Below, piece by piece: positions 1 to 15,373 of a stretch of DNA of 15,373 nucleotides; within the stretch, counting starts at the first letter, position 1, and the number at the start of each line of letters is the position of its first letter. The notes beneath the pieces are model-generated. The model worked only from the letters and a program-made list of their open reading frames with translations. It made no database searches and was not told the origin of the DNA. The DNA is from Fibrobacterales bacterium (GTDB lineage: Bacteria; Fibrobacterota; Fibrobacteria; Fibrobacterales; JAOPTW01). Made by a program: the position numbers and the translations under genes. The stretch covers positions 1 to 15,373 of the forward strand of contig JAOPTX010000121.1 of the NCBI GenBank assembly GCA_051532055.1. The letters run 5' to 3'.

Positions 1-396
1 GATGGTGCCCTGGTTAAAGGGGCAGGTCTGATTCTTTTGGTAGATGATGAGGAAATTATTAGAATTACAGGTAAATTTATGCTTGAAGATATGGGGTATA
101 CGGTGATTTTGGCTAAAGATGGTTCTGAAGCTGTTGACATATTCAAAGCTCGACATTCTGAAATTACCCTAGTTCTTATGGATATGATAATGCCTGTAAT
201 GAATGGTCGGGAAGCATTTTACGAGTTAAAAAAAGTTCAAGAATCCTGTAATGTAATTCTCTCCTCTGGCTTTACTAATAGCGAAAAACTGGATGGACTC
301 AATAATGATGGACTTGCAGGATTTATACAAAAGCCTTATAGAGACATTGAGTTGAGTCAGGTAATAGATAAGGCAATACAACGAGTTCCCAGGTAA
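1..396 (+). CDS. C-terminal receiver (REC) domain, probably of a hybrid sensor histidine kinase (5' truncated by the window)
   Basis: Frame is open from base 1 (DGALVKGAGLILLVDDE...). REC motifs present: acidic pocket LVDDE, phospho-acceptor LMDMIMPVMNG, SSG switch, IQKPY. The 'KGxGxILLVDDE' linker is typical of CckA-like hybrid kinases. Confidence 0.88.
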   Translation, partial: DGALVKGAGLILLVDDEEIIRITGKFMLEDMGYTVILAKDGSEAVDIFKARHSEITLVLMDMIMPVMNGREAFYELKKVQESCNVILSSGFTNSEKLDGLNNDGLAGFIQKPYRDIELSQVIDKAIQRVPR

Positions 397-498
397 TAAT
401 AGAGTTTTGTTTGAGGCTTCCTTTAAATGATTATTTCTTTTAATATATGTAGACTAATAATGACATTTGACCTGAAAATTAAACGGTAAAAATGTATA

Positions 499-527
499 TT
501 GACCCTCGAGGACACACAACATATTCT
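499..527 (+). promoter_or_regulatory. Possible sigma70-type promoter for the amylase gene
   Basis: TTGACC (499-504), 17-nt spacer, TATTCT (522-527), lying very close to the ATG at 538. Confidence 0.35.
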
Positions 528-537
528 GGGGTTAAAA

Positions 538-2769
538 ATGTATACACTATACTTTGTATTGTGTTTGTGCATGCTGTTTTTTATAGCATGTGATAAGGGG
601 GTTTCTCCTATCGATTCACTTCACGCTTCTATAGAAAGTAGTAGCCAAAAAAATCAGCAGTTTCAGTCAAGTTATCAACGATTTAGTTCGGTACTATCAA
701 TGGATAATGGTTCTTTGAGTAGTTCCTTACCTAAAAATATGACCGTGAGTAGTGTAGAAATGAGCTCTATTTCTCTTGATACTCTTGATAGGGTGAGCAG
801 ATCAAGTAGTTCGATCACTGTGATTGGTTTGTCAAGGAGTGTCGTGCAAAATGATACAGGGGTGACTGTACCAAACGACACGATACTTTCGAGCAGTACC
901 CGATTAACGCAATCTTCACTAGGAGTGCAATCAAGTAACCAGCATTCAAGTGAATCTAGGGGGGATATATCGTCCGGTAATCCAGAATTAAGCAGTTCAG
1001 TAATTGCAGTAAGTTCTAGTAGCATCAAAGTGAGTAGCTCAGCTCCTAGTGCTCTGTCGAGTAATGAGCCTTCTTCTTCTTTTTCTTCTAATGCATCCAT
1101 CACACCCAGTAGCTCAAGCTTTGTCTCGGTCATTGTTCCTCCTGCGAATACGCTCCCGCGTACTGTATTTGTGCATCTTTTTGAATGGCAGTGGGCCGAT
1201 ATTGCTCTAGAATGTGAAAATGTACTTGGACCTGGAGGTTTTGCTGCGGTACAGGTATCACCTCCTCAAAAATCCATTCCAGGAGACGTGTGGTGGACTC
1301 GTTATCAACCAATGAGTTATGCCATAGAGGGGCGTTCGGGAAATCGTGCAGCATTTGCAAATATGGTACAGCGCTGTAAGGCAGTTGGGGTAGATATATA
1401 TGTAGATGCTGTAATTAATCACATGGCAGCAGGGGGTAGGAATTATCCTGAGGTTCCTTACGCATCTGGTGATTTTCATGGGTGTACAAGCATCACAAAT
1501 TTTACAGATCGCTGGGAGGTTCAGAATTGTGATCTGCTCGGACTCAATGATCTTGCGACAGAAAAAGAGGATGTGCGAAATAAAATTGCAGCATATTTGA
1601 ACGACCTTATTGGTATTGGCGTAGCCGGGTTTCGTATCGATGCGGCTAAGCACATGCCGGCTTCAGACCTTGCTGCAATTAAAAGTAAATTGACTGGAAG
1701 CCCCTATATATTTCAAGAAGTAATTGGAGCGGGGACTGAACCCATTAAGCCTTCAGAATATACTGGTGTAGGGAGTGTGACAGAATTCAATTTTACTCGA
1801 ACTATTGGGCACTACTTTAAGAGACGAGCACCACTGCATGAGCTCTCAAATATTGGTACCTGGTCAGGATGGCTTCCGAGTAATAGCGCTGTTGTATTTG
1901 TCGCAAATCATGATAACCAGCGTCAGGATACTGATAATACAATCACACACAAAGATGGAGAAGGGGTCAATAATAGCGCCCATATCTTTGCCCTTGGATG
2001 GCCTTATGGCTACCCTAAGATTATGTCAAGCTATGAGTGGGCTGATCATGATCAAGGCCCGCCAGCAGTAGGAGCAAATACTTGTAGTGACGGTTGGCTA
2101 TGTGAACATCGGTCGCGCCCCATTTATAACATGGTGCAATTTAGAAACTACACTCACAGTGTGCCTTATGTAACAGACTTCTGGACTAATGGTGGGAATC
2201 AAATTGCATGGGGGCGCGGTGGTTTAGGGTATGTTGCTCTCAATATGGAAGGGAGTACCCTAACACGTACCTTTAATACAGGTATGCCTGTTGGAACTTA
2301 TTGTGATGCAATTACTGGTGACTTCAATCCGGTAACCAAAGCGTGTACGGGTACGGTTATCTCAGTGAATGGGAGTGGATTGGCTCAGATGACGGTTCCA
2401 CCAATAGGGGCTGTCGCAATACATAGAGGTGTTCGTATTGATGATCAATGTACAAGTAGATGTTCATCCAAAACTGTGCCGGTAACTTTTACTTGTCATA
2501 ATGGTTCTACTGTTATGGGGCAGAGTGTCTATGTTGTAGGTAATATCCCCGAGCTGGGTGATTGGAACGAAGGGGGGGCACGTAAGCTTGAACCTTCTCG
2601 CTATCCTATCTGGGAAGGAGTGATGAATTTACCTGCCAATACTGCATTAGAGTGGAAATGCCTCAAGCGCAATCAATATAATCCTACAGATAATATTGTG
2701 TGGGAAAGTGGTTCGAATACGGTGATTAACTCTGGGAGTGGCGGAGTGAGTACGGTGGGGAGTTTTTGA
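538..2769 (+). CDS. Lipoprotein alpha-amylase: signal peptide II, Ser-rich linker, GH13 catalytic domain (animal/actinomycete/Pseudoalteromonas-like), C-terminal CBM20 starch-binding domain
   Basis: ATG at 538 gives MYTLYFVLCLCMLFFIA-C (lipobox-like FIAC). GH13 motifs: VHLFEW, DAVINH, GFRIDAAKH (nucleophile D), FQEVI (acid/base E), FVANHD, YGYPKIMSSY, GWLCEHR. CBM20 from ~2476: GQSVYVVGNIPELGDW, EWK, WESGSN. Confidence 0.95.
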   Translation: MYTLYFVLCLCMLFFIACDKGVSPIDSLHASIESSSQKNQQFQSSYQRFSSVLSMDNGSLSSSLPKNMTVSSVEMSSISLDTLDRVSRSSSSITVIGLSRSVVQNDTGVTVPNDTILSSSTRLTQSSLGVQSSNQHSSESRGDISSGNPELSSSVIAVSSSSIKVSSSAPSALSSNEPSSSFSSNASITPSSSSFVSVIVPPANTLPRTVFVHLFEWQWADIALECENVLGPGGFAAVQVSPPQKSIPGDVWWTRYQPMSYAIEGRSGNRAAFANMVQRCKAVGVDIYVDAVINHMAAGGRNYPEVPYASGDFHGCTSITNFTDRWEVQNCDLLGLNDLATEKEDVRNKIAAYLNDLIGIGVAGFRIDAAKHMPASDLAAIKSKLTGSPYIFQEVIGAGTEPIKPSEYTGVGSVTEFNFTRTIGHYFKRRAPLHELSNIGTWSGWLPSNSAVVFVANHDNQRQDTDNTITHKDGEGVNNSAHIFALGWPYGYPKIMSSYEWADHDQGPPAVGANTCSDGWLCEHRSRPIYNMVQFRNYTHSVPYVTDFWTNGGNQIAWGRGGLGYVALNMEGSTLTRTFNTGMPVGTYCDAITGDFNPVTKACTGTVISVNGSGLAQMTVPPIGAVAIHRGVRIDDQCTSRCSSKTVPVTFTCHNGSTVMGQSVYVVGNIPELGDWNEGGARKLEPSRYPIWEGVMNLPANTALEWKCLKRNQYNPTDNIVWESGSNTVINSGSGGVSTVGSF

Positions 2770-2832
2770 TTGCTTCCACAGTTGTTTTTGTTTGCTTATT
2801 TTTCTTGGGATTTCAGTCTTCTTTTTTTTGAT

Positions 2833-2848
2833 ACAACACTTGTGTTGT
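2833..2848. promoter_or_regulatory. Perfect dyad ACAACAC-TT-GTGTTGT, possible operator
   Basis: 7-bp inverted repeat with a 2-nt spacer (too tight for an RNA hairpin) in the 300-bp intergenic region upstream of the discoidin gene. Confidence 0.3.
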
Positions 2849-2929
2849 TAAGATAAAAGGTTATTTGTACTTAGAGTAAGTGCTTCTCTGCTTTGATTTT
2901 ATTAATTGATTCTGGTGTGTGAGTTTAAT

Positions 2930-2951
2930 TTTTGAGTACGTTTTGAGTACG
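2930..2951. repeat. Perfect tandem direct repeat 2 x TTTTGAGTACG (11 bp)
   Basis: Read directly at 2930-2940 and 2941-2951. Confidence 0.85.
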
Positions 2952-3026
2952 CTATATTTTCATGGGTGGCGATAGACCATATACATCATGAGTATTTAGA
3001 GGTACCTTTGGTCTCGTTAAATGTAA

Positions 3027-3038
3027 ACACACACACAC
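3027..3038 (+). repeat. (AC)6 dinucleotide repeat in an A/C-rich 5' leader
   Basis: acacacacacac at 3027-3038, continuing as aacacaattaacaattacacaggaatcacac-ATG. Confidence 0.8.
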
Positions 3039-3069
3039 AACACAATTAACAATTACACAGGAATCACAC

Positions 3070-3765
3070 ATGAAACTTAGTAACATTATTAAATCAACAC
3101 TCGTTGGAATCACTTGTATCACATCAATTGCTTCTGCAGCCAACTATAGCCTTGTCTCTCAAATTGCTGAAGTAACAGCTTCAAGTATTGAGTCAACTCA
3201 GTACCCTGCATCAAACCTTACTGATGGAAATAAAGATACTCGTTGGGCGTCCGAATTTGCTGATGGTCAGGAAGTAATTCTTGATCTCCGTTCTTCACAA
3301 TACATTGACAGAGTGGCATTGACATGGGAAGGCGCATATGCTTCAACCTACACAGTATCTACTTCAAATGACTTAGTACACTGGGAATTTCAATATACTC
3401 AAGTACATGGCATGGGTGGTGTTGAAGTTGAAACAAGAGATATGGGTAAATTTCAGTATGTTAAAATTGCACTAGACTACAGAGCAACTTCATACGGTTT
3501 TTCACTCTATGAAGTAGAAGTTTTTACTGATCTTGATCTTCACCTTGAAGCTACAACTATTAAATTGAATGCACACAGCGACTGGGGTAGAAAGCCACTT
3601 CCTTCGTGTGATAATAGCACTGTAGGAACAATTGCAGTACAGAAAGAGGGTCACTACACTATTAATACAGTTGTATACTCATGTGTAAGCTACAGCGCTC
3701 CAAATCTTACAAGTACATTGTTTGGTTGGGTTAAACTTGCAGAAGGTGCACAGCTTCTCGATTAG
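3070..3765 (+). CDS. Secreted F5/8 type C (discoidin/CBM32) domain protein with a small Cys-containing C-terminal module
   Basis: Signal peptide ending ASA-A. Discoidin motifs TASS..E, NLTDGNKDTRWAS, ILDL, LTWE-GAYA, YGFSLYEVEVF. AGGA SD lies 7 nt upstream of the ATG. Confidence 0.88.
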   Translation: MKLSNIIKSTLVGITCITSIASAANYSLVSQIAEVTASSIESTQYPASNLTDGNKDTRWASEFADGQEVILDLRSSQYIDRVALTWEGAYASTYTVSTSNDLVHWEFQYTQVHGMGGVEVETRDMGKFQYVKIALDYRATSYGFSLYEVEVFTDLDLHLEATTIKLNAHSDWGRKPLPSCDNSTVGTIAVQKEGHYTINTVVYSCVSYSAPNLTSTLFGWVKLAEGAQLLD

Positions 3766-3790
3766 TAATCAGATTCTGTAATCGTTTTAT

Positions 3791-3825
3791 AAAAAAAGGC
3801 TCCTTAGCAATAAGGAGTCTTTTTT
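3791..3825. terminator. Bidirectional intrinsic terminator between the discoidin gene and the convergent biosynthetic operon
   Basis: AAAAAAA-GGCTCCTTA-GCAA-TAAGGAGTC-TTTTTT: 9-bp stem (one G-U pair), GNRA loop, A-tract before and T-tract after. Confidence 0.9.
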
Positions 3826-3898
3826 ATTTGTTATAACAGGTTACTAAATAACTTTTACTAAAATACTCCCTACTCATGTTTTGATAGAGTACATTAGA

Positions 3899-5050
3899 CT
3901 ATTTACTTATCCAGCTTTTAAAGCTGACCGTGATACCTCGCCAAATAAATTGTTTCCGGAATAGGCTTACTATGACAAGAAGGGGTTGAAGCATAAGCAT
4001 TAATGGAACATAGATAATGTGCCTGAGTGGAAGAGTATGACTCCTCTTGAGTAAAGTGTATTCATTAATCATTATTCCCATGCTTTCAATGAGAATACTG
4101 AGTAGTAAAGGAACAAATAGAATAAGATGGATATCGGTAAAAAAGAGCATAAGACTCAGGATATACAGAGAGATTGGGGCAAAGAGGCTCAGAATAAGCA
4201 TAGAAAAACTATAGATAAAGGTTTTGCGATCTATTAAGTGCATTATAGCGCGGGGGAGCATAAGCCACCGGATAATTTGTTCAATAACATCCTTCCATGA
4301 TGCACTGTGTTTATTTACCACAATAGGTTCTTTTGAAAGGTGAACTGATTTGCCGGCTCGTCCGAAATAGGTGCCTAAAGAGTGGTCATCAGAGGCTTCT
4401 TTTCGATTATTGTAGAGTGCCTGTTCGGCAACGTCATCTACTGGCCGAATCATCATGCTTGGCCCTATGGATGTATTAAATTGAGACCAGATAAAAGCCC
4501 CGGCATAAAGAGAAAAGTTACTGTAATCAGTATATGCCGCTAATAATGCTTCAGGAGGAGTACTGGCATTTGCGTATATGGGGAGACTGAAGGATAAATG
4601 ACCTTGATGAGACTGGGTTCTTCTCGTCAGGTAGTCATAGTCAATTGAGGTATCGCTATCCATAAACAGAACAGTATCATATGATGCAGCTTTATAGCCC
4701 TGATACATTCTCCAGTTCTTGTCGTACCAATTGTCAGAGAGTTGTTTGCTAATTATAATGGTGACTTGAGGAGAGTACTGATTGAGTCGTTCAAGATTTT
4801 CTGCGTCGGCAACGACAATTACCTCAATAGTATTTTCATAATTTTGTTTACAAAGATTGGTGAGCAATAAATCTAAAGAATGGTCCCAGCCTTTTAAAGG
4901 GATAATTACAGTTATGTCTCCTTGAGATTGGCTATTGGGATCACAGACTATTGGCTTATTTGAAAAACGCAGATAAATTAACATCCATCGTAAAAATAAC
5001 ACGACTGGGATACCCCAGAAGAGACTCATGAATAGAGTGCTATTGATCAA
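3899..5050 (-). CDS. Membrane glycosyltransferase, GT-A fold, ceramide glucosyltransferase/HpnI-like (GT21/GT2)
   Basis: N-terminal TM helix, 'ITVIIPLKG', K in 'DKNWRM', DxD (FMDSD), 'IGPSMM', SDD-H, QxxRW (QIIRW), several C-terminal TM helices. TTG start overlaps the upstream stop (TTGA) and has GGAG 5 nt upstream. Confidence 0.8.
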   Translation of the reverse strand: MINSTLFMSLFWGIPVVLFLRWMLIYLRFSNKPIVCDPNSQSQGDITVIIPLKGWDHSLDLLLTNLCKQNYENTIEVIVVADAENLERLNQYSPQVTIIISKQLSDNWYDKNWRMYQGYKAASYDTVLFMDSDTSIDYDYLTRRTQSHQGHLSFSLPIYANASTPPEALLAAYTDYSNFSLYAGAFIWSQFNTSIGPSMMIRPVDDVAEQALYNNRKEASDDHSLGTYFGRAGKSVHLSKEPIVVNKHSASWKDVIEQIIRWLMLPRAIMHLIDRKTFIYSFSMLILSLFAPISLYILSLMLFFTDIHLILFVPLLLSILIESMGIMINEYTLLKRSHTLPLRHIIYVPLMLMLQPLLVIVSLFRKQFIWRGITVSFKSWISK

Positions 5051-6372
5051 GTCATCTCCGATGTGGTGAACGTTCGTTCAACTCTTTTTAATTTTGCGAG
5101 AGGTAATGGTGCTCTATAAGGAGTAAAAATAACTTGCGGGTGTGTAATTTTATAGCTATCAAATACCATATTCAGGTTGGATACTATTTTCTTATTTTCT
5201 GATTCAGTAGATGAAGTACTGGCTCCATATTGAATAGATACTTCGATTGAACTCATACTTGTTTGTATGATTTTATACTCAGCAATCATGTCGGTAGCCG
5301 TAATTACAGCCCTTCTCATAAAATCAGGATATACTGGAATAGTTTCTCCTGTATGGGTCAAAAAATAAAATATATCATCACACCGCCCTTCTATGCATTC
5401 CAATGCTGTGAGGGCAGATCCACATTTACAGGGAGTGTCTTTTAATGTGAGGATATCATTTAAACGGTATCTAATTACAGGCTGGCTGGTGCGATTGAGG
5501 TCGGTGATAATGGGGATAAACTTTTTTGGATTATTTGGCAAAAATTCTTTTTCAATTATAAGGAGGTCTTCATTTAAATGAAGTGTTCCATGGGCACAGG
5601 TACAACCTATAAACCCTTCAGTTGCTTGATATATTTGATGTATTGTTTGATTATATATTCGCTTTAAATAGAGTTCATCAAGTGGATCGAGTACTTCTGC
5701 AACAGATATAACTTTGATAGGATGTAAGCTTATTGCTCTGGATTCAATACATTGTGCAATGACCTTTAATACTGAGGGTGGGGCAATGAGTATGGTGGGT
5801 TGTATTGTATTGAGTCTGTTGAGATGATCTGTTGCTGGTATGATCATGTCGAAATAGTGAAAGGAAATGGCACCTGCATTACTACTTTCATATAGATTAC
5901 TGTTGGAACGGAGAAACAGTGCAATACGGTTTTTTTGCCATAAAGGGCCAGGGAGTACTTTCGCAAGGGTCTTTCCTGCCCATACGGATTCTTCGTAGGG
6001 AGAAACCAAGAAAAGGCCACGATTACCACTGGTTCCAGAAGATAAACCAATAGTATATCCATTGATCCTTCCATCAAATGAACGATCGGTTTCAGATTTT
6101 ATTGCGTATTCATATGCGTGTTCTTTTGATATTCCAACAGTATTGATCGTATCAAAATGTTCCATCATTGTCTCTTTTGACATGATCTCTATTGTATCTT
6201 TTAGCTGTGAACTATTAGCAGTAATATTTTTATAAAAGAGAGATTTCTTTGATACGGTGCGTAATACTTTTTTTAATCTTTTTTGTTGGTAACGGTGTAT
6301 TCTCATTCGAGAATCAAACGTGAGTATATATCTAGAAATAATAAAATGATACAGTATAATTATTGATTTCAT
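5047..6372 (-). CDS. Adenylate-forming enzyme, F390 synthetase-related / PaaK-like (ANL superfamily)
   Basis: P-loop LSSGTSGNRG, YQATE, IRYRLND, hinge IEGRCDD, terminal lysine in AKLKR, and PaaK-like Zn-site cysteines (CTCAHG, CKCG). ATGA overlap with the upstream gene. Confidence 0.9.
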   Translation of the reverse strand: MKSIIILYHFIISRYILTFDSRMRIHRYQQKRLKKVLRTVSKKSLFYKNITANSSQLKDTIEIMSKETMMEHFDTINTVGISKEHAYEYAIKSETDRSFDGRINGYTIGLSSGTSGNRGLFLVSPYEESVWAGKTLAKVLPGPLWQKNRIALFLRSNSNLYESSNAGAISFHYFDMIIPATDHLNRLNTIQPTILIAPPSVLKVIAQCIESRAISLHPIKVISVAEVLDPLDELYLKRIYNQTIHQIYQATEGFIGCTCAHGTLHLNEDLLIIEKEFLPNNPKKFIPIITDLNRTSQPVIRYRLNDILTLKDTPCKCGSALTALECIEGRCDDIFYFLTHTGETIPVYPDFMRRAVITATDMIAEYKIIQTSMSSIEVSIQYGASTSSTESENKKIVSNLNMVFDSYKITHPQVIFTPYRAPLPLAKLKRVERTFTTSEMT

Positions 6373-7196
6373 AGGCGTGGTAGGTTGGAATGCGTTGAGC
6401 TGCAGTGACAGGGAATGATATTCAGGTTTTTTGATCTCAAATGTAAGGTGTGTAATTTTTTGATTGTATCGAGATAGAGGCTTTTGTCGTGAATGATTAA
6501 ATATGCTAATGGGTGTATTTTTGAAAGTCTTTTGAATTGATCTTCGATCCAGCAGGCATCTGAAATCAATAAATAATCAGCATCCGATGCGCTTAAAAAG
6601 AGTCCCATATGTCCGGGAACATGTCCGGGGAGAGAAACCCCTATAATACTGCCGTCATTAAAAATATCCCACCCGCTCGTAATAGGGTCTATTAATGATC
6701 CGCAGTCAATTTGTTCAGACTTTGAAATAGCATGTGCACGTTTTTCAAAATTTTCAGGTAAGAGGTCTTTTAAAAAGCCATTTTTTACTTGAGCAAAACG
6801 GTTGAGAGTAACAACATTGCGGTAGGCTTCATCTATAAAATGATACTGTGCTGAAGGGAAATCTCTTATACCAGCGACGTGGTCGGCGTGAAAGTGGGAT
6901 ATAATAACATGCTTAATATCTTCTGGATCAATGCCGTGCAGTTTTAATTGATAGGCGGCCGTGGCCTCTGGTGTCACATAAACTGGAGTTAATAGCGCAT
7001 AGAGTTTTTCTGGAAAATGAGCGGTGGCAGTGTAGAAATTGTGAGAGTATCCAGTGTCAAATAAGATGTATCCTTTGGAAGGGTGGTTAATGAGTGCAAC
7101 TGTAGAGGGGAAGATTGATGGTTTAAACGAACCTCCTTTCTTAACTATAAACTCTGGGTGGGTACAATAACCCGCTTCAATAAATTTAATGTCCAT
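6369..7196 (-). CDS. MBL-fold metallo-hydrolase (AHL-lactonase-like subgroup)
   Basis: LFDTG, HxHxDH (SHFHADH), LPGHVPGH, SDACW, terminal CH. The likely start is ATG 7196 (MDIKFIEAG) with an AAGGAG SD 7 nt upstream, overlapping the SDR 3' end. Confidence 0.92.
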   Translation of the reverse strand: MDIKFIEAGYCTHPEFIVKKGGSFKPSIFPSTVALINHPSKGYILFDTGYSHNFYTATAHFPEKLYALLTPVYVTPEATAAYQLKLHGIDPEDIKHVIISHFHADHVAGIRDFPSAQYHFIDEAYRNVVTLNRFAQVKNGFLKDLLPENFEKRAHAISKSEQIDCGSLIDPITSGWDIFNDGSIIGVSLPGHVPGHMGLFLSASDADYLLISDACWIEDQFKRLSKIHPLAYLIIHDKSLYLDTIKKLHTLHLRSKNLNIIPCHCSSTHSNLPRL

Positions 7197-8190
7197 TCGT
7201 GTGCTCCTTAATTTTCCACCAGTCAATGAATCTGCGTGTGCCTTCTTCAAGAGATACTATTGGTACATAGTTCAGGTCTTTTTCTGCAGCACTAATTTTA
7301 AGGGTGCGTGCATGAGCTAAAACGCTTAATGAATAGGGGGTAAGAATTGGTTCTATATTAGGGAGAAATACCTTATGAATGTTTTCAAGAACAAACGATA
7401 AAAGATAGGCAAGAGAATAGGGAATCTTTTTGATTCTTACTGGAATATTTAATTGGGTTAAAAGGTCGGTAAGAAAGGGCACGAGGTCAATAGGGTCACC
7501 ATTGGTAATGTTATAAATGTTTCCAGAATAGAGTGAAGGGGCCTCTACAGCGAGACGTATGGCTTCTGCAACATTATCGACATAGGTGATGTCGATGGTT
7601 GTTGCTTTTTTTCTCAGAACTGGAATACCTTTTGATGAATTCGCTTTTATCAGTCTTGGAAATATTGCCGGATCTTCCGGGCCGAATAGTGCTTGAGGTC
7701 TGAGAGTTATAACTGAAAGACCTTGTGCATAGGCGCTTTTGATTCTTTTCTCTGCAATTATTTTAGTAGCAATATAATTATTTAAGGATCGGGACGGGAG
7801 TGGGTCATTCTCTGAAATGTCATATCGATCGATAAAGCATGAGTAGATGCTTGGGGAGCTGATATGTATCAATCGAGTTATGTTATTTTTAAGGCAAGCA
7901 GCAATTACATTTTCTGTTGCAACGACATTGTTATTATAGAATGTTTTATACTTACCCCATGAACTAGAAAGTGCGGCGCAGTGGACTACAACAGTATATT
8001 GGGCAATGACTTCGTTCACCTGAAGAGTATCGAGGAGGTCAACTTTGTGAAATAATATGCCATCAGCCTGCAGTGCACTGCCTATCGTTTCATTTCGTCC
8101 GAGGGCACTTACAGAATATCCTTTTTCTTTAAGATAATAGCATGTAGCCTTGCCTAAAAACCCTGTTCCACCTGTTATGAGAACTTTCAT
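7186..8190 (-). CDS. Extended SDR, NAD(P)-dependent epimerase/3-beta-hydroxysteroid dehydrogenase-like (OleD-like) reductase
   Basis: VLITGGTGFLG Rossmann motif, HCAA, ISSPS, YxxxK (YIATK), LRPQALFGPED, TYVDNVA. The likely start is ATG 8190, 1 nt after the stop of the fabH-like gene. Confidence 0.93.
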   Translation of the reverse strand: MKVLITGGTGFLGKATCYYLKEKGYSVSALGRNETIGSALQADGILFHKVDLLDTLQVNEVIAQYTVVVHCAALSSSWGKYKTFYNNNVVATENVIAACLKNNITRLIHISSPSIYSCFIDRYDISENDPLPSRSLNNYIATKIIAEKRIKSAYAQGLSVITLRPQALFGPEDPAIFPRLIKANSSKGIPVLRKKATTIDITYVDNVAEAIRLAVEAPSLYSGNIYNITNGDPIDLVPFLTDLLTQLNIPVRIKKIPYSLAYLLSFVLENIHKVFLPNIEPILTPYSLSVLAHARTLKISAAEKDLNYVPIVSLEEGTRRFIDWWKIKEHTNGH

Positions 8191-8191
8191 G

Positions 8192-9199
8192 TTACCCCAT
8201 GTATTGAATGATTTGTGCAGATAAAGCAATACCTGCACCGGTACCAATTAATAAGATATAGTCCCCTTGGTTAATGGATTCTGATTTCAATACTTCATGA
8301 AATGCAGTTGGAATGGAAGCGGCTAATTGGTTTCCGTGCTCTTCAAGAATATCAATCCATTTTTCTTGGGTAATGGGGATTCTTTTCTTGATTAATTTGA
8401 GGGCTGCTCTACTTGCTTGGTGAGGTACAACAACAGTGATGTCAGTATAGGTTATTCCGGTATCTTTAAATAGTCTTTCTAAAAAAGGATTAAGGTGTGT
8501 TAATGTTTTTTTAAATAACTTTGGTCCATTCATTGAAAAGCAATAGTCATCATGTATTTCTTCTCTATACTTACGTGGGGGAAGTGTATTTCCTCCTCCT
8601 TTAATTTCACAAAGGCCCATACCGTCACTATAGGTTTCCATGTGGCTTGCAATTAGCTTGAAAGAACTTCCCATTTGGGGGGCACTCAAAATATGGGCTA
8701 CTGCACCATCACCAAAAAGTGCCGCACTTTCTATGTGGCTTTTATTGAGATGATCATGAGCTGTTTCGGCAGTCACAATAAGTACTTTTGAAAAACGGCC
8801 CATTGCTATCTGCGATACTGTGGTGTCGAGTGCTGTTAAAAAGCTCAAACAGGTTGCATTGATATCAAAACACGGAATGCCGGATTTGCCAAAGCCTAAC
8901 CGGTTTTGAATGATAGCCGCTGTGCACGGTATTGGTTGTTCGAGGGAGGTTGCTGCGAAAATAATGGCATCGAGATCGTTACATTGAATATTTGCCTCAA
9001 TAAGTGCCTTTTGGGCTGCTTTTGCTGCCATGTCAGCGATGGTCTCATGATCCATATAGTAACGAGTGCGAACACCTGTCTTTTTAAAGGAGGTTCCCGA
9101 TGGGACTTCTAATAGAGTATCAAGTTCCTGAGCGGTAACTTTTTTGGTGGGAAGGTATTTGCCTGACCCTAAAATGGAGAATGTAGGTTGAACTCTCAT
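8192..9199 (-). CDS. 3-oxoacyl-ACP synthase III (FabH)-like condensing enzyme
   Basis: GxGxYLP, TGVRTR, catalytic Cys (DINATCLSF), LFGDGA, His (VVPHQAS), Asn (HGNQLAASIP), GTGAG. Probably pathway-specific rather than the housekeeping fabH. Confidence 0.93.
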   Translation of the reverse strand: MRVQPTFSILGSGKYLPTKKVTAQELDTLLEVPSGTSFKKTGVRTRYYMDHETIADMAAKAAQKALIEANIQCNDLDAIIFAATSLEQPIPCTAAIIQNRLGFGKSGIPCFDINATCLSFLTALDTTVSQIAMGRFSKVLIVTAETAHDHLNKSHIESAALFGDGAVAHILSAPQMGSSFKLIASHMETYSDGMGLCEIKGGGNTLPPRKYREEIHDDYCFSMNGPKLFKKTLTHLNPFLERLFKDTGITYTDITVVVPHQASRAALKLIKKRIPITQEKWIDILEEHGNQLAASIPTAFHEVLKSESINQGDYILLIGTGAGIALSAQIIQYMG

Positions 9200-9328
9200 T
9201 TCTGCTATTCCGTATGCTGATTAGGACACTCCATTCAATGTGTATAATTTATGCACGATGAAAAGGAGATGTTCTATTGTATTAGGTACAAATATAGTGA
9301 TTATATCAATTTTTCCATTTGTATATAT

Positions 9329-9356
9329 GTTCTGTGTGATACGGAACACATAGAAC
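9329..9356 (+). promoter_or_regulatory. 10-bp stem-loop/inverted repeat with an ATACGGAA loop in the divergent promoter region
   Basis: GTTCTGTGTG (9329-9338), ATACGGAA, CACATAGAAC (9347-9356), with one G-U pair. The same octamer occurs on the minus strand at 9208-9215. Confidence 0.5.
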
Positions 9357-9392
9357 TGGTTTGTTTATTACAAACTTACTAATTTTCGGCAC

Positions 9393-10505
9393 ATGATAAT
9401 TCCTCTGCTCATTTTACTTCCTACACTCATTTATGCAATTATTCTTATTACTTTGATTGCTGGTGTCATAAAATTACGAGATCGTAGAAACATACATAGC
9501 CGGTGCCCGAGTGTGTCAATTGTCGTTCCATTATACAATGAAGAAGAGGGTGCATTACAGACACTCAGTGCTCTCGCTGCGCAAGAGTATATTGGTGAAT
9601 GGGAGGTTATTTGTATTGATGACCGCTCCACTGATTTGACTTATGAAATAATCAGTACATTTTGTGATAACCATTCACGATTCTCATGTTATTCTATTCC
9701 ACATGATGTAAAGCGTGTCGATTCACCTAAAAAGCGTGCGCTAGAAACTGGGTTTAGCTATGCACAGAATGAAGTGTTTATGAGTATTGATGCCGATAGT
9801 ATCCCTCCTGTGGGTTGGTTGAAATCTATGTCTCAAAACTTCCATTCTGCTATAGAAATTGTACAAGGTCCTAAACAGATACGGGGAAATAATACACCAG
9901 TTATTGTGTATCAAAAAATTGAAACGCTTGTACTCACACTCCTTGAAGGAACATTGTTCACACTAAAATTTCCGGTGATTGCAAGTGCCCCTTCGCTTGG
10001 ATACTTAAGGACTCTTTATAATGCGGTGGGAGGTTTTGAGGACCACAAACAGTACATTTCTGGTGATGACGATATGCTAGTACAGGCAATGAGTAAAAAA
10101 GCTCAGGACTTTTGTTACAATTTGGATCCTGCTGCGGCAGTCCAGACAAGCGGAGTACAATCTGTATCTGAATTGTTTAGTCAAAGGGCTCGCTGGTGTA
10201 GCAATGCAACTCATTATGAAAACAGATGGTATGTCTTATTAATATTCACCGTGTATGCATACTTTCTGTTTTTAGGTATTACGCCAATTCTTTACTTCGT
10301 TACAGATATAACACCAGTATATCTCTTAGGCCCATGGGTCATTAAGTTAACTCTCGATCTGATTTTTCTTAGTATCGGCAGTAAAAAACTTAATAGTCGA
10401 TTGTTGGTTGTTGGAGCTCCATTTGCGCTCATATTCAGTGTCCCGCTATTGCTCTGGGCTATTCCTGCCGGGTATTTTAAGCTTTTTAAATGGGGTGGAC
10501 AATAG
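9393..10505 (+). CDS. Membrane-bound family 2 glycosyltransferase (D,D,D,QxxRW type)
   Basis: N-terminal TM helix, VSIVVPLYNEE, IDDRSTD, KKRAL, IDAD, VGGF, SGDDD, QRARW, and about three C-terminal TM helices. Confidence 0.92.
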   Translation: MIIPLLILLPTLIYAIILITLIAGVIKLRDRRNIHSRCPSVSIVVPLYNEEEGALQTLSALAAQEYIGEWEVICIDDRSTDLTYEIISTFCDNHSRFSCYSIPHDVKRVDSPKKRALETGFSYAQNEVFMSIDADSIPPVGWLKSMSQNFHSAIEIVQGPKQIRGNNTPVIVYQKIETLVLTLLEGTLFTLKFPVIASAPSLGYLRTLYNAVGGFEDHKQYISGDDDMLVQAMSKKAQDFCYNLDPAAAVQTSGVQSVSELFSQRARWCSNATHYENRWYVLLIFTVYAYFLFLGITPILYFVTDITPVYLLGPWVIKLTLDLIFLSIGSKKLNSRLLVVGAPFALIFSVPLLLWAIPAGYFKLFKWGGQ

Positions 10506-10764
10506 ACGAAGAATGTTCGTTCACCGACCTCCACTACCTTTGTTGATAATACGGTAATATGGAAATGGTATCTTTATAGCAATAGTGAATATTTTTATCG
10601 ACATGAAAACTCCAAGACTGTTGCAAATTCTATTCGTTGTGTTCAGATTGCTCAATAGATAGTTCATTGTGCACAATAAACAAACCACATGTGATGCGTG
10701 TCGATGTCCGGGATCTGAAAAAAAAATTCGGGCTTCGCATTACTGAGTTATGTATAATAATAGA

Positions 10765-10793
10765 GTTTGAGTATAAGCTTTTATTACTCAAAC
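10765..10793. terminator. Hairpin overlapping the START-gene stop codon; possible weak terminator
   Basis: GTTTGAGTA (10765-10773) pairs with TACTCAAAC (10785-10793): 9-bp perfect stem, 11-nt loop, no clear U-tract. Confidence 0.35.
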
Positions 10794-11554
10794 AGCTTTG
10801 GATATAATCGATTCATTTGTCGTCTAAACATGGGTTCCATCTCGGGTTGAGTATCATTATCGTCATAAAGCTTTCTTAAATTATCAAAAGCAGTTGATAC
10901 CATATGATCTCCAGTAAGGTTTACGATCCAGTTGGGGAAATGACCCGCTGGGTTAAAATAGAATTGAAAATCAAGTAAGGTATGTTGGTTGTTGGTGCCT
11001 TGAGGTGTCAGTATGAACGTAACTTCCAAAAGGTCCATTCGTACGAGATTTTCTTTTTGGGGTGCGAGGGGGTGAACTATTGAGGTAGCGAATAGAGTAA
11101 TGATCGGGGGCTGGTCTCGTCCTTGTTCGGTAAAGTTGAGAGTACCTTTAATGACCCAATCTCGATTGTTGTAGGGCGGTAGGAAATAGGTTTCACCGTA
11201 TATGATTTGGTAAAAATTATTGAGGTCTTCATCGTAGCTTCTCGTTGTATAATTGCGTTCGATAAGTTTGGATGATTCAAACCAATAGACCCATTCAGAC
11301 ATCAAGGTAGGTTGCACTACCGTAGCGGCTAGTTTTACGATATCGTATTCAATGAGTCCAACTCCTCGAAACTCGTATACATCTTTTTCTGATGATTTTC
11401 TTTCATATAGTATAACACCATCGTTTTCTTTTAATAGGGACCAGTCCTCTACAGGAGTAGCAGTAATCGAAGAGATGGTACCTAAAAGAGTGAAAGCTAC
11501 AATAGATAGTTTTGTCTTATAGTGGATAATATAATAGTTCTGTAAAAAAGACAT
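10784..11554 (-). CDS. Secreted START/SRPBCC-domain lipid-binding protein
   Basis: Hydrophobic signal-like N-terminus, then W-x(6)-G-V-x-L-Y (DWSLLKENDGVILYER), EFRGVG, EW, P-x-x-NRD, HPLAP..VR, NPAGHFPNWIVN: the pattern of bacterial START domains. Confidence 0.82.
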   Translation of the reverse strand: MSFLQNYYIIHYKTKLSIVAFTLLGTISSITATPVEDWSLLKENDGVILYERKSSEKDVYEFRGVGLIEYDIVKLAATVVQPTLMSEWVYWFESSKLIERNYTTRSYDEDLNNFYQIIYGETYFLPPYNNRDWVIKGTLNFTEQGRDQPPIITLFATSIVHPLAPQKENLVRMDLLEVTFILTPQGTNNQHTLLDFQFYFNPAGHFPNWIVNLTGDHMVSTAFDNLRKLYDDNDTQPEMEPMFRRQMNRLYPKLFE

Positions 11555-11713
11555 ATGAGTATGGGATAAAGGGCTTATTAAAAGATATATACGTGAGTGG
11601 AAAATAGTGCGTTTACTAGCACGGCATACTTCATACTAAAAAAATGTTACTATTGGGTTGTAACTTTGTCTTTGATAGGTACCAATCAATTCTTATAGCT
11701 ACTATTTTAAGCA

Positions 11714-11758
11714 CTAACCTACGCATCTTAGGGGATTGCCCTAAGATGCGTAGGTTAG
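11714..11758. repeat. Perfect 20-bp inverted repeat with a 5-nt loop downstream of the dsbA-like gene
   Basis: CTAACCTACGCATCTTAGGG-GATTG-CCCTAAGATGCGTAGGTTAG; the arms are exact reverse complements. Confidence 0.95.
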
Positions 11759-11775
11759 GCGTATAGGTTTTTTAA

Positions 11776-12432
11776 TTATTCACCATACTGAATGGCAATC
11801 TCTTTTGCCACAAGCTTAGTCAACTCATCTAATCCAAAATGAGGGAGTGGCTGGCCATTAACAAAAAACTCTGGGGTTTGTTTTACATTGAGAGCTTTAA
11901 CATCGGCAAGATCTTGTTGAATGAGTTGCGCAATCTTTGGGTCTTGCATATCTTTTTTCAGAAGCTCAATATCGATATTGAGGTCTTTCATATAGCCCCA
12001 AGTAAGGTCGACCTTGGCTTGATGATGGCTAGCCCAGACAGCTTGATAGCCGTAGAGACGTTCAAGAGCTTCCCAATACTTATTTTGCTTGCGGGCAGCT
12101 TCAATAAGGGCAACAATATCTTTGGCGCCATGATGAAATGGTGCATATCGCATAACAAGTTGGACTTTACCTTTTGATTGATCGACAAGTCTTTTTACAG
12201 AATAAAAGAGCTGCCGGCAGGTTTCACAGGCAGGGTCAAAGAACTCGACTATGTACACTTTAGCGTCCGCTTTTCCATACGTGATAGCATGGTCAGGGAC
12301 AAAAATTTGTGCATTCTCTTGGGCAAGAAAATTGCGCTTTGTGGTCTGTTTTGATTTATATATATATGACCCTGCTACATAACAGGCCATGAGGATTGCG
12401 ACAGAAACGAGTACGATTATTCTTTTATTCAT
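11776..12432 (-). CDS. dsbA: DsbA-family thiol:disulfide oxidoreductase (BdbD-like, membrane-anchored)
   Basis: N-terminal TM anchor, G..DAKVYIVEFFDPACETC (CxxC), RYAPFH, cis-Pro loop VKQTPEFFVNG. Confidence 0.9.
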   Translation of the reverse strand: MNKRIIVLVSVAILMACYVAGSYIYKSKQTTKRNFLAQENAQIFVPDHAITYGKADAKVYIVEFFDPACETCRQLFYSVKRLVDQSKGKVQLVMRYAPFHHGAKDIVALIEAARKQNKYWEALERLYGYQAVWASHHQAKVDLTWGYMKDLNIDIELLKKDMQDPKIAQLIQQDLADVKALNVKQTPEFFVNGQPLPHFGLDELTKLVAKEIAIQYGE

Positions 12433-12898
12433 GAGTGGTTCTCTTTTTTAATAGTATTAATAGGGTTACGAGTGCGGTGTATGCTCCCAGCGACAGAAGC
12501 GGAATGGAGATGAATCCAAAGAATTCGATATACTGCTCACTACAGGAGATTCCCTGGCTACAGGGGGTGATTGTTTCGGGTATGATACCCACATAGAGTA
12601 GATTGTGATAGAGGGCAACAAACCACCCAGGAATCACTAAGGGGAGTGAATATTTAATTACTGCTTTATCAAAGGGGAAGAGGCCTACTAAGAATAGTAT
12701 GACGAGAGGGTAAAGGAGGATACGTTGGTACCAACAGAGGGAGCACGGTGGGAATTTCATTACTTCACTAAAAAAGAGTGAACCGAGGACCGAGACGACG
12801 ACAATAATCCAACTGATAAATAATAAAAGCCAGTTTGTGTCGGTATTGGGAGTATTTGCATGATTGGTATTTAGGCGCATATGTTCTATGAGTCTCAA
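12425..12898 (-). CDS. dsbB: Disulfide bond formation protein B (BdbC-like)
   Basis: GSLFFSE, PCSLCWYQR, second Cys pair PCSQGISCS, GFISIP, four TM helices; 8-nt overlap with dsbA. The start could instead be ATG 12880. Confidence 0.92.
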   Translation of the reverse strand: MRLIEHMRLNTNHANTPNTDTNWLLLFISWIIVVVSVLGSLFFSEVMKFPPCSLCWYQRILLYPLVILFLVGLFPFDKAVIKYSLPLVIPGWFVALYHNLLYVGIIPETITPCSQGISCSEQYIEFFGFISIPLLSLGAYTALVTLLILLKKRTTHE

Positions 12899-13095
12899 AA
12901 GAATATTTTATTTATGAGTTAAAAAATAGCACATTGTAAGGAATGTAATGGATATTTATGCGGTATTAATATCCCAGAATGCTCTTCTTACTGGATTGAT
13001 AGATCATTCTCTCATTACAACTAATAGAACATACATTTATAACAACGTATGTCGGTATTAAATAAATGGTCAAACAGCGGCTCTCTTTTGATGAG

Positions 13096-14922
13096 TTACA
13101 TTTCTGGGCTATTTTTGGGGATCTTTACCGTAAATGTACTGCCTTTCCCCAATTCTGTAGTAACCCCTATAGTACCTTTGTGTCGATTCGTTATGATATC
13201 ATACGATATGTTGAGGCCCAGCCCGGTGCCTTCTCCAACTTCTTTTGTGGTAAAGAAGGGGTCAAAAATTTTAGGCTCTACCTCTTTGGGGATTCCTGGT
13301 CCATTATCAGTAAATATACAGTGTATTTCAGATTGATGTTCTTCTACAGTAATAGTAAGTGATCCTTTTTCCTTATCGCTATCGCGTACTGCTTGTGATG
13401 CATTAACAATGAGGTTGAGGAATACTTGATTCAATTCTGAACCATTTGCTTTAATAATGGGTTGATCTGTGTAGTGTTCAATAATATCAATGAAGTATTT
13501 GTACTCATTTTTGGCGACAACAAGGGTACTTTTAATACCTGCAACAATATCGAAGTTATCAAATGTGTTTGACGTGTCAATATGAGAAAAGTTTTTAAGA
13601 TTTTTTACAATAGTGGTTATACGCTTTAGGCCACTCTGACATTCACTTACCAGATCATGTGTGTCATCTAAAATAAAAGAAATATTTCCTTTTTCACTTT
13701 TATGTGAGTCTGTTGAAGGCTGGGTCTCTTTTTCTAGAGTATCGATATAGTGGATTATCTTTTCCAAATAGGTGTTTAATGTAGAAATATTACTCGTAAC
13801 ATATCCTACGGGGTTATTGATCTCGTGAGCTATGCCTGCGGCTAATTGACCAATACTTGCAAGTTTTTCTTGTTGAATCAACTGAGTCTGAGCACTTTTT
13901 AACTGTTGAAGGGTTGTTTCCAGAGTCGTATTGTGTTTGATTAGTTCGTTCTCCCGATCAAGTATGATGTCGGACATGGCAATAAAATTATCATAAAGAT
14001 CTTGCAGTTCCTGGATAGATTTTTCATAGACAGGATGCGTGGGCGAAAACCCTGCTGCGAGGTCAGTTGTGATTTTCTGTAATGTTGCAATAGGTTTGAT
14101 AAGATGCTTTTGTGAAATTCTATAGAATAGCCCAAATAGTACCAAAGAAAGAAAGGCCAAAATACATAAAATCTCAATGATAAGGCTATTGCGGGTATCT
14201 ATATAATCCTGAATATCAGAGATGATACGTACTTTGGTATGAGGGTAAGATAAGGAAGTCCAAAATGCGATACCATTACTTTTCGTTCCAAAACTGAGTG
14301 CTTGATTATCCTTATAGAGAACGGAAATTTGAATCCCTGAAACATTCTTAAAATGAGGGATTTCAAGGATGGATTGTAACGGGAATTCTGCCGAGAGAAT
14401 ACACTCTGTATGTCCATTATACTGCACAGCAGAAAGGAGCCCCCAGAAATAACCTGTATCAGTCTTATAGAGGTGAATAAATGAGGTGAGTGTATCGTTC
14501 AGTATATTTTTAACCCAAGGCATCTCTTTAAATTGGTTTTCACTCAGTGTTGTGTTATTAAATAGTGCATCTCCTTTAAAGTCGAGGAACGCATAGTTGA
14601 CGCTTTTATTAAATACCTTGGTGGCACTGAGAAAGTCATGAAGATTACCTCTATTGAGGCTTGGTTGCATGCAGCTCTGAATGAGTACAGGATATTGGGC
14701 GTAGTCTTTGATTAATGAGCTTCTGGTAGTGAGGTATTGCGTAATGTCAGATACAATTCCTTTAGATTCGCGAAGTCTCTGTATAGATTGGGTCCGCTTT
14801 AACGTTGTATCGATTCTATAAAAGAGAAGAATAGTAATGATGCAGCCAAATACTACAAAAGAGAGTATTGAGGCCGTAAAAACATACCATGATAATTTTT
14901 TGTTTTTTAGAATTATATTCAT
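13096..14922 (-). CDS. Membrane sensor histidine kinase (periplasmic Cache-like domain, HAMP-like linker, HisKA, HATPase; NtrB-type)
   Basis: Two TM helices flank a ~210-aa extracytoplasmic domain. H-box EKLASIGQLAAGIAHEINNP, N-box LNQVFLNLIVNA, G1 DNGPGI, F-box FDPFFTTK, G2 GTGLGL. Confidence 0.95.
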   Translation of the reverse strand: MNIILKNKKLSWYVFTASILSFVVFGCIITILLFYRIDTTLKRTQSIQRLRESKGIVSDITQYLTTRSSLIKDYAQYPVLIQSCMQPSLNRGNLHDFLSATKVFNKSVNYAFLDFKGDALFNNTTLSENQFKEMPWVKNILNDTLTSFIHLYKTDTGYFWGLLSAVQYNGHTECILSAEFPLQSILEIPHFKNVSGIQISVLYKDNQALSFGTKSNGIAFWTSLSYPHTKVRIISDIQDYIDTRNSLIIEILCILAFLSLVLFGLFYRISQKHLIKPIATLQKITTDLAAGFSPTHPVYEKSIQELQDLYDNFIAMSDIILDRENELIKHNTTLETTLQQLKSAQTQLIQQEKLASIGQLAAGIAHEINNPVGYVTSNISTLNTYLEKIIHYIDTLEKETQPSTDSHKSEKGNISFILDDTHDLVSECQSGLKRITTIVKNLKNFSHIDTSNTFDNFDIVAGIKSTLVVAKNEYKYFIDIIEHYTDQPIIKANGSELNQVFLNLIVNASQAVRDSDKEKGSLTITVEEHQSEIHCIFTDNGPGIPKEVEPKIFDPFFTTKEVGEGTGLGLNISYDIITNRHKGTIGVTTELGKGSTFTVKIPKNSPEM

Positions 14923-14928
14923 AGGTAT

Positions 14929-15372
14929 CTATTGTATCAAAATAATTTCATTGTGAGTTCCAAATTGTGCCATTCTGAAGTCTGAGATATATAACGCTTC
15001 ATGGCTATCCTTTTTTAATGGACTCCATGGAGAAAAAGGGAGCTGGTAGGTCTTTACTAATCCGGTAATTGGTGTCGTTAGGTGTTCGAGAGCGTAATGG
15101 AGGTCTTTTCGAATGTCATGTATGTTTTGGTCAAGTGATACTCCATTCAGTGCAGAAATTAGGATACGAGTAAGGTCATAGGCATGGATAAATCCCGTTG
15201 GAGCCTCAAGGGATTGAACATTAGAATATGATGGATATAATTTTTGAAATTGTGAAAAGACTGAGTGTGCAATTGGATGTCCGGTAGTATCAAGAAAAGA
15301 GAAACTTGTTTGAAGGAACTGTAAATCGATCTCATTTCGTATTGCAGCTGGTATAACCTTAGGAAAATCACC
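14929..15372 (-). CDS. C-terminal part of a type-1 periplasmic binding protein (LIV/branched-chain amino acid ABC substrate-binding-like); runs off the window and is absent from the ORF track
   Basis: Hand translation of the open frame 15372->14929 gives GDFPKVIP...FLQTSFSF...PTGFIHAYDLTRILISAL...IRKDLHYALEHL...GLVKTYQLPFS...HEAL..SDFRMAQF...IILIQ*. The 'HAYD..IL..A', 'R.ALE.L' and 'GL.K.Y..PF...H.AL' pattern is that of PBP1 proteins. The stop lies 6 nt before the kinase ATG. Confidence 0.78.
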   Translation of the reverse strand, partial: GDFPKVIPAAIRNEIDLQFLQTSFSFLDTTGHPIAHSVFSQFQKLYPSYSNVQSLEAPTGFIHAYDLTRILISALNGVSLDQNIHDIRKDLHYALEHLTTPITGLVKTYQLPFSPWSPLKKDSHEALYISDFRMAQFGTHNEIILIQ

Positions 15373-15373
15373 T

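Follow-up and report, generated by a model that had tools for sequence, protein, structure and literature searches.

A strain-variable genomic island joining a ketosynthase-containing cassette with membrane glycosyltransferases in a Fibrobacterales bacterium

Organization of the operon

In this study, a DNA stretch of 15,373 nt from a Fibrobacterales bacterium (GenBank assembly GCA_051532055.1), referred to below as the window, was analyzed with a focus on a five-gene operon located at positions 9199 to 3899 of its minus strand. The window is the whole of contig JAOPTX010000121.1 (C121); the genome comprises 5.17 Mb at 94% completeness. The operon encodes: (i) a FabH-clade ketosynthase III (KS), similar to MxnB and CorB (9199..8192, 335 aa), (ii) an extended short-chain dehydrogenase/reductase (SDR), similar to OleD, NSDHL and 3beta-HSD (8190..7186, 334 aa from ATG, with the frame open to 8247), (iii) a lactonase-like hydrolase with a metallo-beta-lactamase fold (MBL; 7196..6369, 275 aa from ATG, frame to 7250), (iv) an adenylate-forming enzyme (ADE) of the TIGR02304 family, 'F390 synthetase-related' (6372..5047, 441 aa) and (v) an integral-membrane glycosyltransferase (GT), similar to GT21-type enzymes and HpnI (5050..3899, 383 aa from TTG). 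A divergent gene for a membrane GT2 glycosyltransferase (the GT2 gene; 9393..10505, plus strand, 370 aa) lies beyond a divergent promoter region (9200..9392), and the operon and the GT2 gene together constitute a 6.9-kb accessory island (about 3826..10733).

The co-directional arrangement of the five genes and their very short junctions, described in an initial annotation of this DNA, were read directly in the sequence and all proved correct. The TAA stop codon of the KS gene (8194-8192) is followed by a single c and then by the ATG of the SDR gene at 8190, which gives a 1-nt gap. The SDR and MBL genes overlap by 11 nt (MBL ATG at 7196, SDR end at 7186), with AAGGAG placed 7 nt before the MBL ATG, while the MBL and ADE genes overlap at ATGA, and the ADE and GT genes at TTGA, with GGAG 5 nt upstream of the TTG of the GT gene. 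An alternative GT start is an ATG at 5029, and the corresponding 367-aa form is present in the protein database. The strong terminator reported after the operon was also found: a hairpin with a 15-pair stem and T-runs on both strands (3792..3825), which closes the operon and coincides with the left edge of the island. It was the top-ranked terminator-like site in a terminator scan and reads as an intrinsic terminator in both directions (8 terminator-like sites were counted in 3600..9500 vs 3.3 +/- 1.8 in shuffled sequences). The same scan pointed to an imperfect palindrome of 10 pairs (9329-9356, GTTCTGTGTG...CACATAGAAC) within the 193-nt divergent region between the KS and GT2 genes, which could be an operator of some regulator. 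A riboswitch or another RNA leader was considered and rejected, since no Rfam family reached its gathering score in the window.

The cluster had been described as lacking an acyl carrier protein (ACP), and Pfam searches of the island indeed detected neither a polyketide synthase (PKS) nor a PP-binding domain. The intergenic gaps within the island, of only 73, 193 and 228 nt, are too short for a hidden ACP gene. No aminotransferase was found in the island, either in the list of open reading frames (ORFs) or with Pfam, and no serine palmitoyltransferase was detected in it with Pfam (the genome was not searched with a specific Spt model).

Enzymes encoded by the island

Hidden Markov model (HMM) searches against Pfam and NCBIfam recovered all five domain assignments made previously, and the catalytic motifs, noted as intact, are present in each of the five proteins. 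The KS matches ACP_syn_III (PF08545) and ACP_syn_III_C (PF08541), contains the Cys-His-Asn triad (C117/H260/N290) and scores only 27 bits with Thiolase_N. It falls below the curated FabH cut-offs (PRK07204, 389.8 vs 402; PRK09352, 229.5 vs 249; TIGR00747, 202.3 vs 292.1), and a separate housekeeping FabH-like gene, whose product is 24% identical to the KS, is located on contig C70. Among proteins of solved structure, the highest scores were obtained with PDB entries 4V2P (221 bits) and 4YUC (CorB, 194 bits), followed by FabH proteins (at most 152 bits), PqsD (72 bits) and OleA (about 66 bits). In the literature, the 4V2P protein is named MxnB and the position of CorB V94 is that of the catalytic Glu of PpyS, OleA and NocG (PMC4578411, PMC9486936), with PpyS E105 and OleA E117 as the equivalent residues (PMC4578411). 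Ile90 of the KS aligns with CorB V94, and thus the OleA-type Glu is replaced in the KS by Ile. Having no Glu base for deprotonation of a plain acyl chain, the enzyme should depend on malonyl units, in the manner of FabH, or on a beta-ketoacyl nucleophile, in that of MxnB and CorB.

The SDR matches PF01370 (Epimerase, 134 bits) and PF01073 (3Beta_HSD, 105 bits), and carries the GGTGFLG and Y139xxxK motifs. Its best curated families are two NCBIfam models of OleD (2-alkyl-3-oxoalkanoate reductase; 218.4 and 212 bits, below the cut-off of 580), while its best PDB match is 6JKG, a sterol-4-alpha-carboxylate 3-dehydrogenase. Like OleD, the latter enzyme acts on a 3-oxo/3-hydroxy group beta to a carboxylate. 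The MBL matches PF00753 (Lactamase_B, 51.5 bits), has the HxHxDH metal site (HFHADH at 101-106) and shows no evident signal peptide in its sequence. Its best PDB matches are N-acyl homoserine lactone (AHL) lactonases (e.g. 9KHQ, 51 bits), although it scores below the lactonase equivalog cut-offs (AttM, the nearest of these families, 82 vs 390 bits; AiiA, 43 vs 375).

The ADE scores 485.9 bits with TIGR02304, above the curated cut-off of 251.9, over residues 4-435 of 441, and this result was reproduced in a search of the whole genome. Its motifs SSGTSGNRG (111-119) and YQATEG (248-253), as well as K427, are invariant across 22 homologues. No Pfam family, and hence not PF00501, matches the protein at E<=0.01. 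Its PDB relatives, all of them distant, are PaaK (9S3L, 4R1L) and PaaK-like ester- or amide-forming ligases (the PaaK-like ligase 6SIW and AjiA1, 6WUQ). As a PaaK-like TIGR02304 protein without a PF00501 match, the ADE is not an OleC. A search of the ESM Atlas returned only 'F390/CoF synthetase' names, and no fused 'Rosetta-stone' forms of 773-2205 aa were found at E<=1e-20, which is weak evidence.

The best Pfam match of the GT is PF13506 (Glyco_transf_21; 55.9 bits vs a gathering cut-off of 21.7). The HpnI model TIGR03472 aligns over its full length at 60.6 bits, far below the cut-off of 310. The protein contains D82, DSD131-133 and QIIRW 258-262. In its AlphaFold2 (AF2) model (pLDDT 72, pTM 0.74), a GT-A domain is accompanied by helices at the N- and the C-terminus, and Foldseek ranked hyaluronan synthases highest among its matches (TM 0.52-0.59); no PDB sequence matches the GT at E<=0.1. 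This GT lineage is rare: five homologues (33-67% identity) were found, and 295 other genomes of the phylum gave no match at E<=1e-10. The product of the GT2 gene matches PF00535 (72.7 bits), carries a QRARW motif and is a probable second tailoring enzyme. A paralogue of it is encoded on contig C17 among genes for lipoyl synthase, an aminotransferase and TPR/SLH proteins, and G001, a genome of the same genus, has a copy of this paralogue at 68% nucleotide identity. A hopanoid link, suggested by resemblance of the SDR to HpnA (110 bits), of the GT to HpnI and, weakly, of the GT2 enzyme to HpnB, was rejected as all scores are far below the cut-offs. Moreover, squalene-hopene cyclase (TIGR01507) was not found in the window's own genome (G000, 94% complete), which makes a hopanoid acceptor unlikely.

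The four-gene core and its variable partners in other genomes

The KS, SDR, MBL and ADE genes had been described as a core that recurs in diverse bacteria, and genome comparisons agree with this. Of 7999 candidates scored, 4614 were homologues of the ADE at E<=1e-10; the best was 51% identical, and among the best 120 most of those with names were from Bacillota. A genome scan matched at least 600 stretches, 580 of those listed encoding relatives, and the best 80 loci were kept and searched by phmmer with the proteins of the window and three added queries. All four core genes were found within 7 kb in 70 of these 80 loci, and several of the 10 incomplete ones are interrupted by contig ends. The carriers include Bacillota, Cyanobacteriota/Melainabacteria, Elusimicrobiota, Actinomycetota and Bdellovibrionota records. 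The core is common in cultivable Bacillota (Brevibacillus, Paenibacillus) and patchy across at least five other phyla; in the class of one carrier, the Gastranaerophilaceae metagenome-assembled genome (MAG) L077, TIGR02304 is sporadic (2 of 151 genomes).

The glycosyltransferase accompanies this core less regularly. A GT21-like gene is present in six of the 80 loci (L039, L054, L062, L072, L075 and L077) and in metagenome contig L113, so the expected co-occurrence exists, but in most loci its place is filled by genes of the ATP-grasp and Fem/GNAT-like types, which prevail in Bacillota. A classical SDR gene follows the ADE gene in the Paenibacillus amylolyticus group. Given the rarity of GT21-like genes and the variation of the tailoring genes, the GT is an exchangeable tailoring module and not part of the core, which is itself a conserved and mobile cassette of four enzymes. 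The exact gene order of the window, KS-SDR-MBL-ADE-GT, occurs in L077 and in Paenibacillus caui (L054). Contig L113, the one usable locus of a scan from the GT side, encodes the C-terminus of an ADE directly upstream of a GT of the window's lineage. That lineage is only 16-20% identical to the other GT21 lineage (20% to the L077-type GT), and full-length homology of the two is supported by hhalign (probability 99.3%, E 7e-21).

Fourteen loci were examined closely, and 33 of their 103 unlabelled ORFs were put to Pfam. Genes of GT1 glycosyltransferases stand beside the core in four of the 14 (L020, L054, L072 and L075). Another recurrent protein (134-293 aa), which matches no Pfam family and carries an SxSxG-type motif, is confined to GT21-type cassettes and occurs in five loci (L039:7059-7904, L062:6982-7863, L075:6356-7006, L072:2455-3051 on the minus strand and L054:11893-12297). 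It is possibly a serine hydrolase or acyltransferase, and tblastn detected none in the genome of the window. In the Clostridia MAG L020 (3785-6777), genes for a PIG-L-family deacetylase, an S-adenosylmethionine (SAM) methyltransferase and a divergent GT1 precede the core and form a further sugar-handling tailoring set.

It had also been stated that no product is assigned to the core, and no paper assigning one was found in the full-text literature searched, the coverage of which is without most subscription journals or supplements. In the same literature, no papers were retrieved with 'F390 synthetase-related' or 'TIGR02304'. The enzyme families are all known, and it is their combination, spread and modular tailoring that are not described in the literature searched.

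A replaceable block that differs between co-occurring strains

Contig C71 of G001 matches positions 1-3825 and 10734-15373 of the window at 90% identity. Homology stops just past the terminator and restarts about 50 nt beyond a START-domain gene, and these breakpoints delimit a variable block composed of the five-gene operon and the divergent GT2 gene. Compared with G001, gain or loss has affected the operon and the GT2 gene together, as a single unit. The place of the island is taken in G001 by 1.7 kb of other genes (locus L110, 4671-6352), which encode an isochorismatase-like hydrolase (184 aa) and a DJ-1/GlxA-type AraC regulator (344 aa); the locus therefore qualifies as a hotspot of replacement rather than as a place of simple insertion. 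Inspection of the ORF list and of the junction alignments revealed no integrase, tRNA or flanking repeats at the island, and none of the 60 relatives searched has a TIGR02304 score above the cut-off. A foreign composition was tried as a further sign of origin and rejected, because the GC content of the island (38.5%) and its tetranucleotide make-up are inside the genome's own spread; there is consequently no compositional sign of recent transfer.

Sequencing data provide a view of the island within one sample. In DNA run X1, possibly derived from the source sample itself, the depth of the island is about 485 and that of its flanks about 545-940, as a second strain adds about 260-300 to the latter. 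This second population is about 10% divergent and present at roughly half the depth. Contig ends of the run at 3825 and 10758 continue into exactly G001-type sequence, which indicates that a sister population without the island lives alongside the one that carries it. From the same sample, RNA library X2 yielded contigs identical to the window on the ADE, MBL, SDR and KS genes, one of which spans the SDR/MBL junction. This is consistent with transcription of KS-SDR-MBL-ADE, with DNA carry-over as a possible alternative. No listed contig of this library covers positions 3899-4617 of the GT gene or most of the GT2 gene; being contigs, the data cannot rank genes by expression, and these gaps say nothing on expression. 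Run X3, from a second study, contains short identical contigs within the island. Since it differs between two close populations of one sample and is matched by contigs of the RNA library, the island is a candidate strain-level ecological trait, with a possible effect on e.g. surface properties or interactions.

The flanks of the island encode several other proteins. A START-like lipid-binding-domain protein with a signal-like N-terminus (10784-11554, minus strand) adjoins the island but is not part of it, as its gene is conserved in the island-free G001. On the other side, positions 499-2769 encode an alpha-amylase with a CBM20 starch-binding domain, in which a hydrophobic leader is followed by an N-terminal region of about 200 aa extremely rich in Ser, and positions 3070-3765 a protein with an F5/8 type C (discoidin) domain, which has at least seven paralogous matches across the genome (28-47% identity).

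Proposed function and alternative explanations

What is shown directly here is the structure of the genes, the families to which they belong, the island nature of the locus, the conservation of the cassette and the variation in its tailoring. The joining of the cassette to two membrane sugar-transferases suggests that the island probably makes a sugar-decorated lipid-like molecule. The initial annotation was more specific and conjectured a glycosylated beta-hydroxy-acyl ester or amide lipid, ceramide-like or small mycolate-like. We tentatively propose, as the explanation that we place first while holding it just short of probable, that the locus is an accessory, horizontally mobile island in which a scaffold made by the core cassette is glycosylated by the island's GTs to a lipid-like product.

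The substrates, the order of steps and the product are inferred here from the enzyme families. The KS would make a beta-keto-acyl thioester from CoA- or ACP-bound precursors, which would come from primary metabolism as no carrier protein is encoded, and the SDR would reduce the 3-oxo group adjacent to the carboxyl carbon. The MBL would release or open an intermediate, by hydrolysis of either a thioester (as PqsE does) or a lactone (as its nearest relatives do). The ADE would activate a carboxylate with ATP. If the ADE acts at the outset, this could be a starter acid, for which the aryl-polyene, flexirubin and pqs pathways offer models; if it acts last, it could be the beta-hydroxy acid, activated for ligation or lactone formation, as with OleC. 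The hydrophobic scaffold, presumably an amphiphile derived from a beta-keto or beta-hydroxy acid, would receive sugar at the membrane from the GT21-like enzyme, whose gene is translationally coupled, and probably also from the GT2 enzyme, to give a glycosylated lipid-like product.

Several findings weigh against this proposal. ATP-grasp genes occur in 62 of the 80 loci and Fem/GNAT-like genes (PF13480/PF04339) in 42, and since a GT is missing from most cassettes, glycosylation is no intrinsic part of what the core does. PF13506 matches 12 of 14 control genomes, so a 'GT21' match is not specific for lipid glycosyltransferases. The fold search on the predicted model confirms a membrane GT-A enzyme but suits a lipid glycosyltransferase and an oligo- or polysaccharide synthase alike. 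The nearest homologue of the GT is 67% identical, whereas no ADE homologue exceeds 51%, which suggests that the GT and the core differ in history. On trees of the ADE (79 rows, L059 and L076 being dropped as partial) and of the four concatenated core genes (44 rows, L026 and L074 dropped), the GT-type loci are scattered and at least four changes are needed; the pairing of the window with L075 on these trees was not used as evidence because both are long branches. Finally, the GT2 enzyme has a 62% identical paralogue in an unrelated context (contig C17; locus L111, 7103-8224, minus strand).

A functional link between the core and membrane glycosylation in the GT subtype is nevertheless favoured, and for four reasons. 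Two very distant GT21 lineages sit directly after the ADE gene in unrelated organisms, the start of the GT gene is translationally coupled to the ADE gene by the TTGA overlap and the GGAG ribosome-binding site, additional GT1 genes recur in GT-type loci, and the operon shares its gain or loss with the GT2 gene. The first, second and fourth of these argue directly against the view that the GT genes are functionally separate neighbours, engaged in the synthesis of a diacylglycerol glycolipid, an oligosaccharide or an exopolysaccharide, with a core product that remains unglycosylated, as in most other genomes; in a variant, the core acyl chain decorates a GT-made oligosaccharide, as in Nod factors. 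We consider such a separation unlikely, although the absence of a GT from 74 of the 80 cassettes, the apparent difference in closest relatives between the GT and the core, the processive synthases among the best fold matches of the GT and the housekeeping context of the GT2 paralogue all speak for it.

The core could also make a small diffusible metabolite of the lactone or pyrone type (a signal or an antibiotic) instead of a membrane lipid. The KS would then join an acyl chain to a beta-ketoacyl chain to form a pyrone or lactone. Processing or recycling of this product would fall to the SDR, the lactonase-like MBL and the ADE, and the GTs would add sugar for export or self-protection. This reading agrees with the proximity of the KS to the pyrone-forming MxnB and CorB, including their NA[ST]CLSF motif and an insertion relative to FabH, with the nearest relatives of the MBL, which are all lactonases, with the two-component regulators or ABC transporters that flank several cassettes and with the macrolide/UDPGT-type GT1 genes near the core in L020, L054, L072 and L075. 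On the other hand, beta-ketoacyl chains would lack a PKS or carrier protein for their delivery, the two GTs of the island are integral-membrane proteins of the GT2/GT21 type, and relatives of the SDR act on beta-keto acids, not on pyrones, and we judge a diffusible product of the lactone or pyrone type to be improbable. A catabolic cassette, in which the lactonase opens a lactone, the ligase forms a CoA ester, the SDR oxidises a hydroxyl and the thiolase-fold enzyme cleaves, is very improbable: catabolic members exist in every class of enzyme found here, PaaK itself being one, but the KS belongs to the condensing FabH clade (Cys-His-Asn triad, low Thiolase_N score), not to degradative thiolases, and the accessory GTs, ATP-grasp ligases and Fem/GNAT transferases are typical of biosynthesis.

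The proposal of a glycosylated lipid-like product may be extended beyond this island, with considerably more doubt. KS-SDR-MBL-TIGR02304 might be an unrecognised, widespread pathway to a common scaffold of the beta-hydroxy-acid type, furnished in each lineage with interchangeable head-group modules, and might define a new family of envelope glyco- and aminoacyl-lipids of which the island is the glycolipid form. In this organism and a few other phyla, GT21, GT1 and GT2 enzymes would then add sugars, and in Bacillota ATP-grasp and Fem-like enzymes would add amino acids, while the glycolipid form would vary between co-occurring marine strains. If this were true, thousands of 'F390 synthetase-related' genes could be annotated and a new class of surface lipid or small molecule could be revealed.

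Comparison with known systems

The alpha-pyrone ketosynthases MxnB and CorB are the best solved-structure matches to the KS, collinear with it over residues 6/7-332, and share its active-site motif and its insertion relative to FabH. The KS is likewise hydrophobic at the Glu position (PMC4578411). Their partner enzymes are other ones, and they use PKS-borne beta-ketoacyl chains, whereas the island encodes no PKS or ACP.

The initial annotation compared the operon with oleABCD, a pathway to olefins and beta-lactones in which OleA is a thiolase, OleB a hydrolase, OleC a beta-lactone synthetase and OleD a reductase. Both place four kinds of enzyme in one operon: a condensing enzyme of the thiolase fold, an SDR of the extended type, an adenylate-forming enzyme that depends on ATP, and a hydrolase. 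The SDR, with OleD as its best curated match, probably reduces a 3-oxo acid as OleD does. The KS, however, is of the FabH clade and not OleA-like (about 66 bits vs 221 for MxnB), with Ile90 at the position of the Glu base. Without the OleA-type Glu, the analogy holds only for the reductase. Moreover, the hydrolase has an MBL fold in place of the alpha/beta fold of OleB, and the GTs are additional.

In the pqsABCDE pathway, PqsA is a ligase, PqsD a ketosynthase III and PqsE an MBL-fold thioesterase. The likeness consists in an ANL ligase, a FabH-like ketosynthase and an MBL-fold hydrolase that acts on a beta-keto-acyl thioester, and the pathway provides a precedent for an MBL as thioesterase and for an adenylating enzyme that acts first. 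The differences are that PqsD scores only 72 bits against the KS, that there is no equivalent of PqsBC and that an SDR and GTs are present here; PqsE was not among the PDB matches of the MBL at E<=1e-3. A pqs-like order, with the ADE first, and an ole-like order, with the ADE last, fit equally well.

GT21-type lipid glycosyltransferases (ceramide glucosyltransferase and HpnI, as well as the bacterial Pgt) share with the GT the PF13506 domain as best match, the D..DxD..QxxRW motifs, an N-terminal helix and C-terminal helices, and the HpnI alignment is full-length. They differ in that the GT remains far below the HpnI cut-off (60.6 vs 310) and has no sequence-detectable solved relative. The closest counterpart of the whole cassette is that of Bacillota (KS, ATP-grasp, SDR, MBL, ADE and Fem/GNAT-like), in which the four core genes stand in the same order and the ADE is 43-50% identical, but in which tailoring falls to an ATP-grasp ligase and a Fem/GNAT-like transferase (or a classical SDR) and not to glycosyltransferases.

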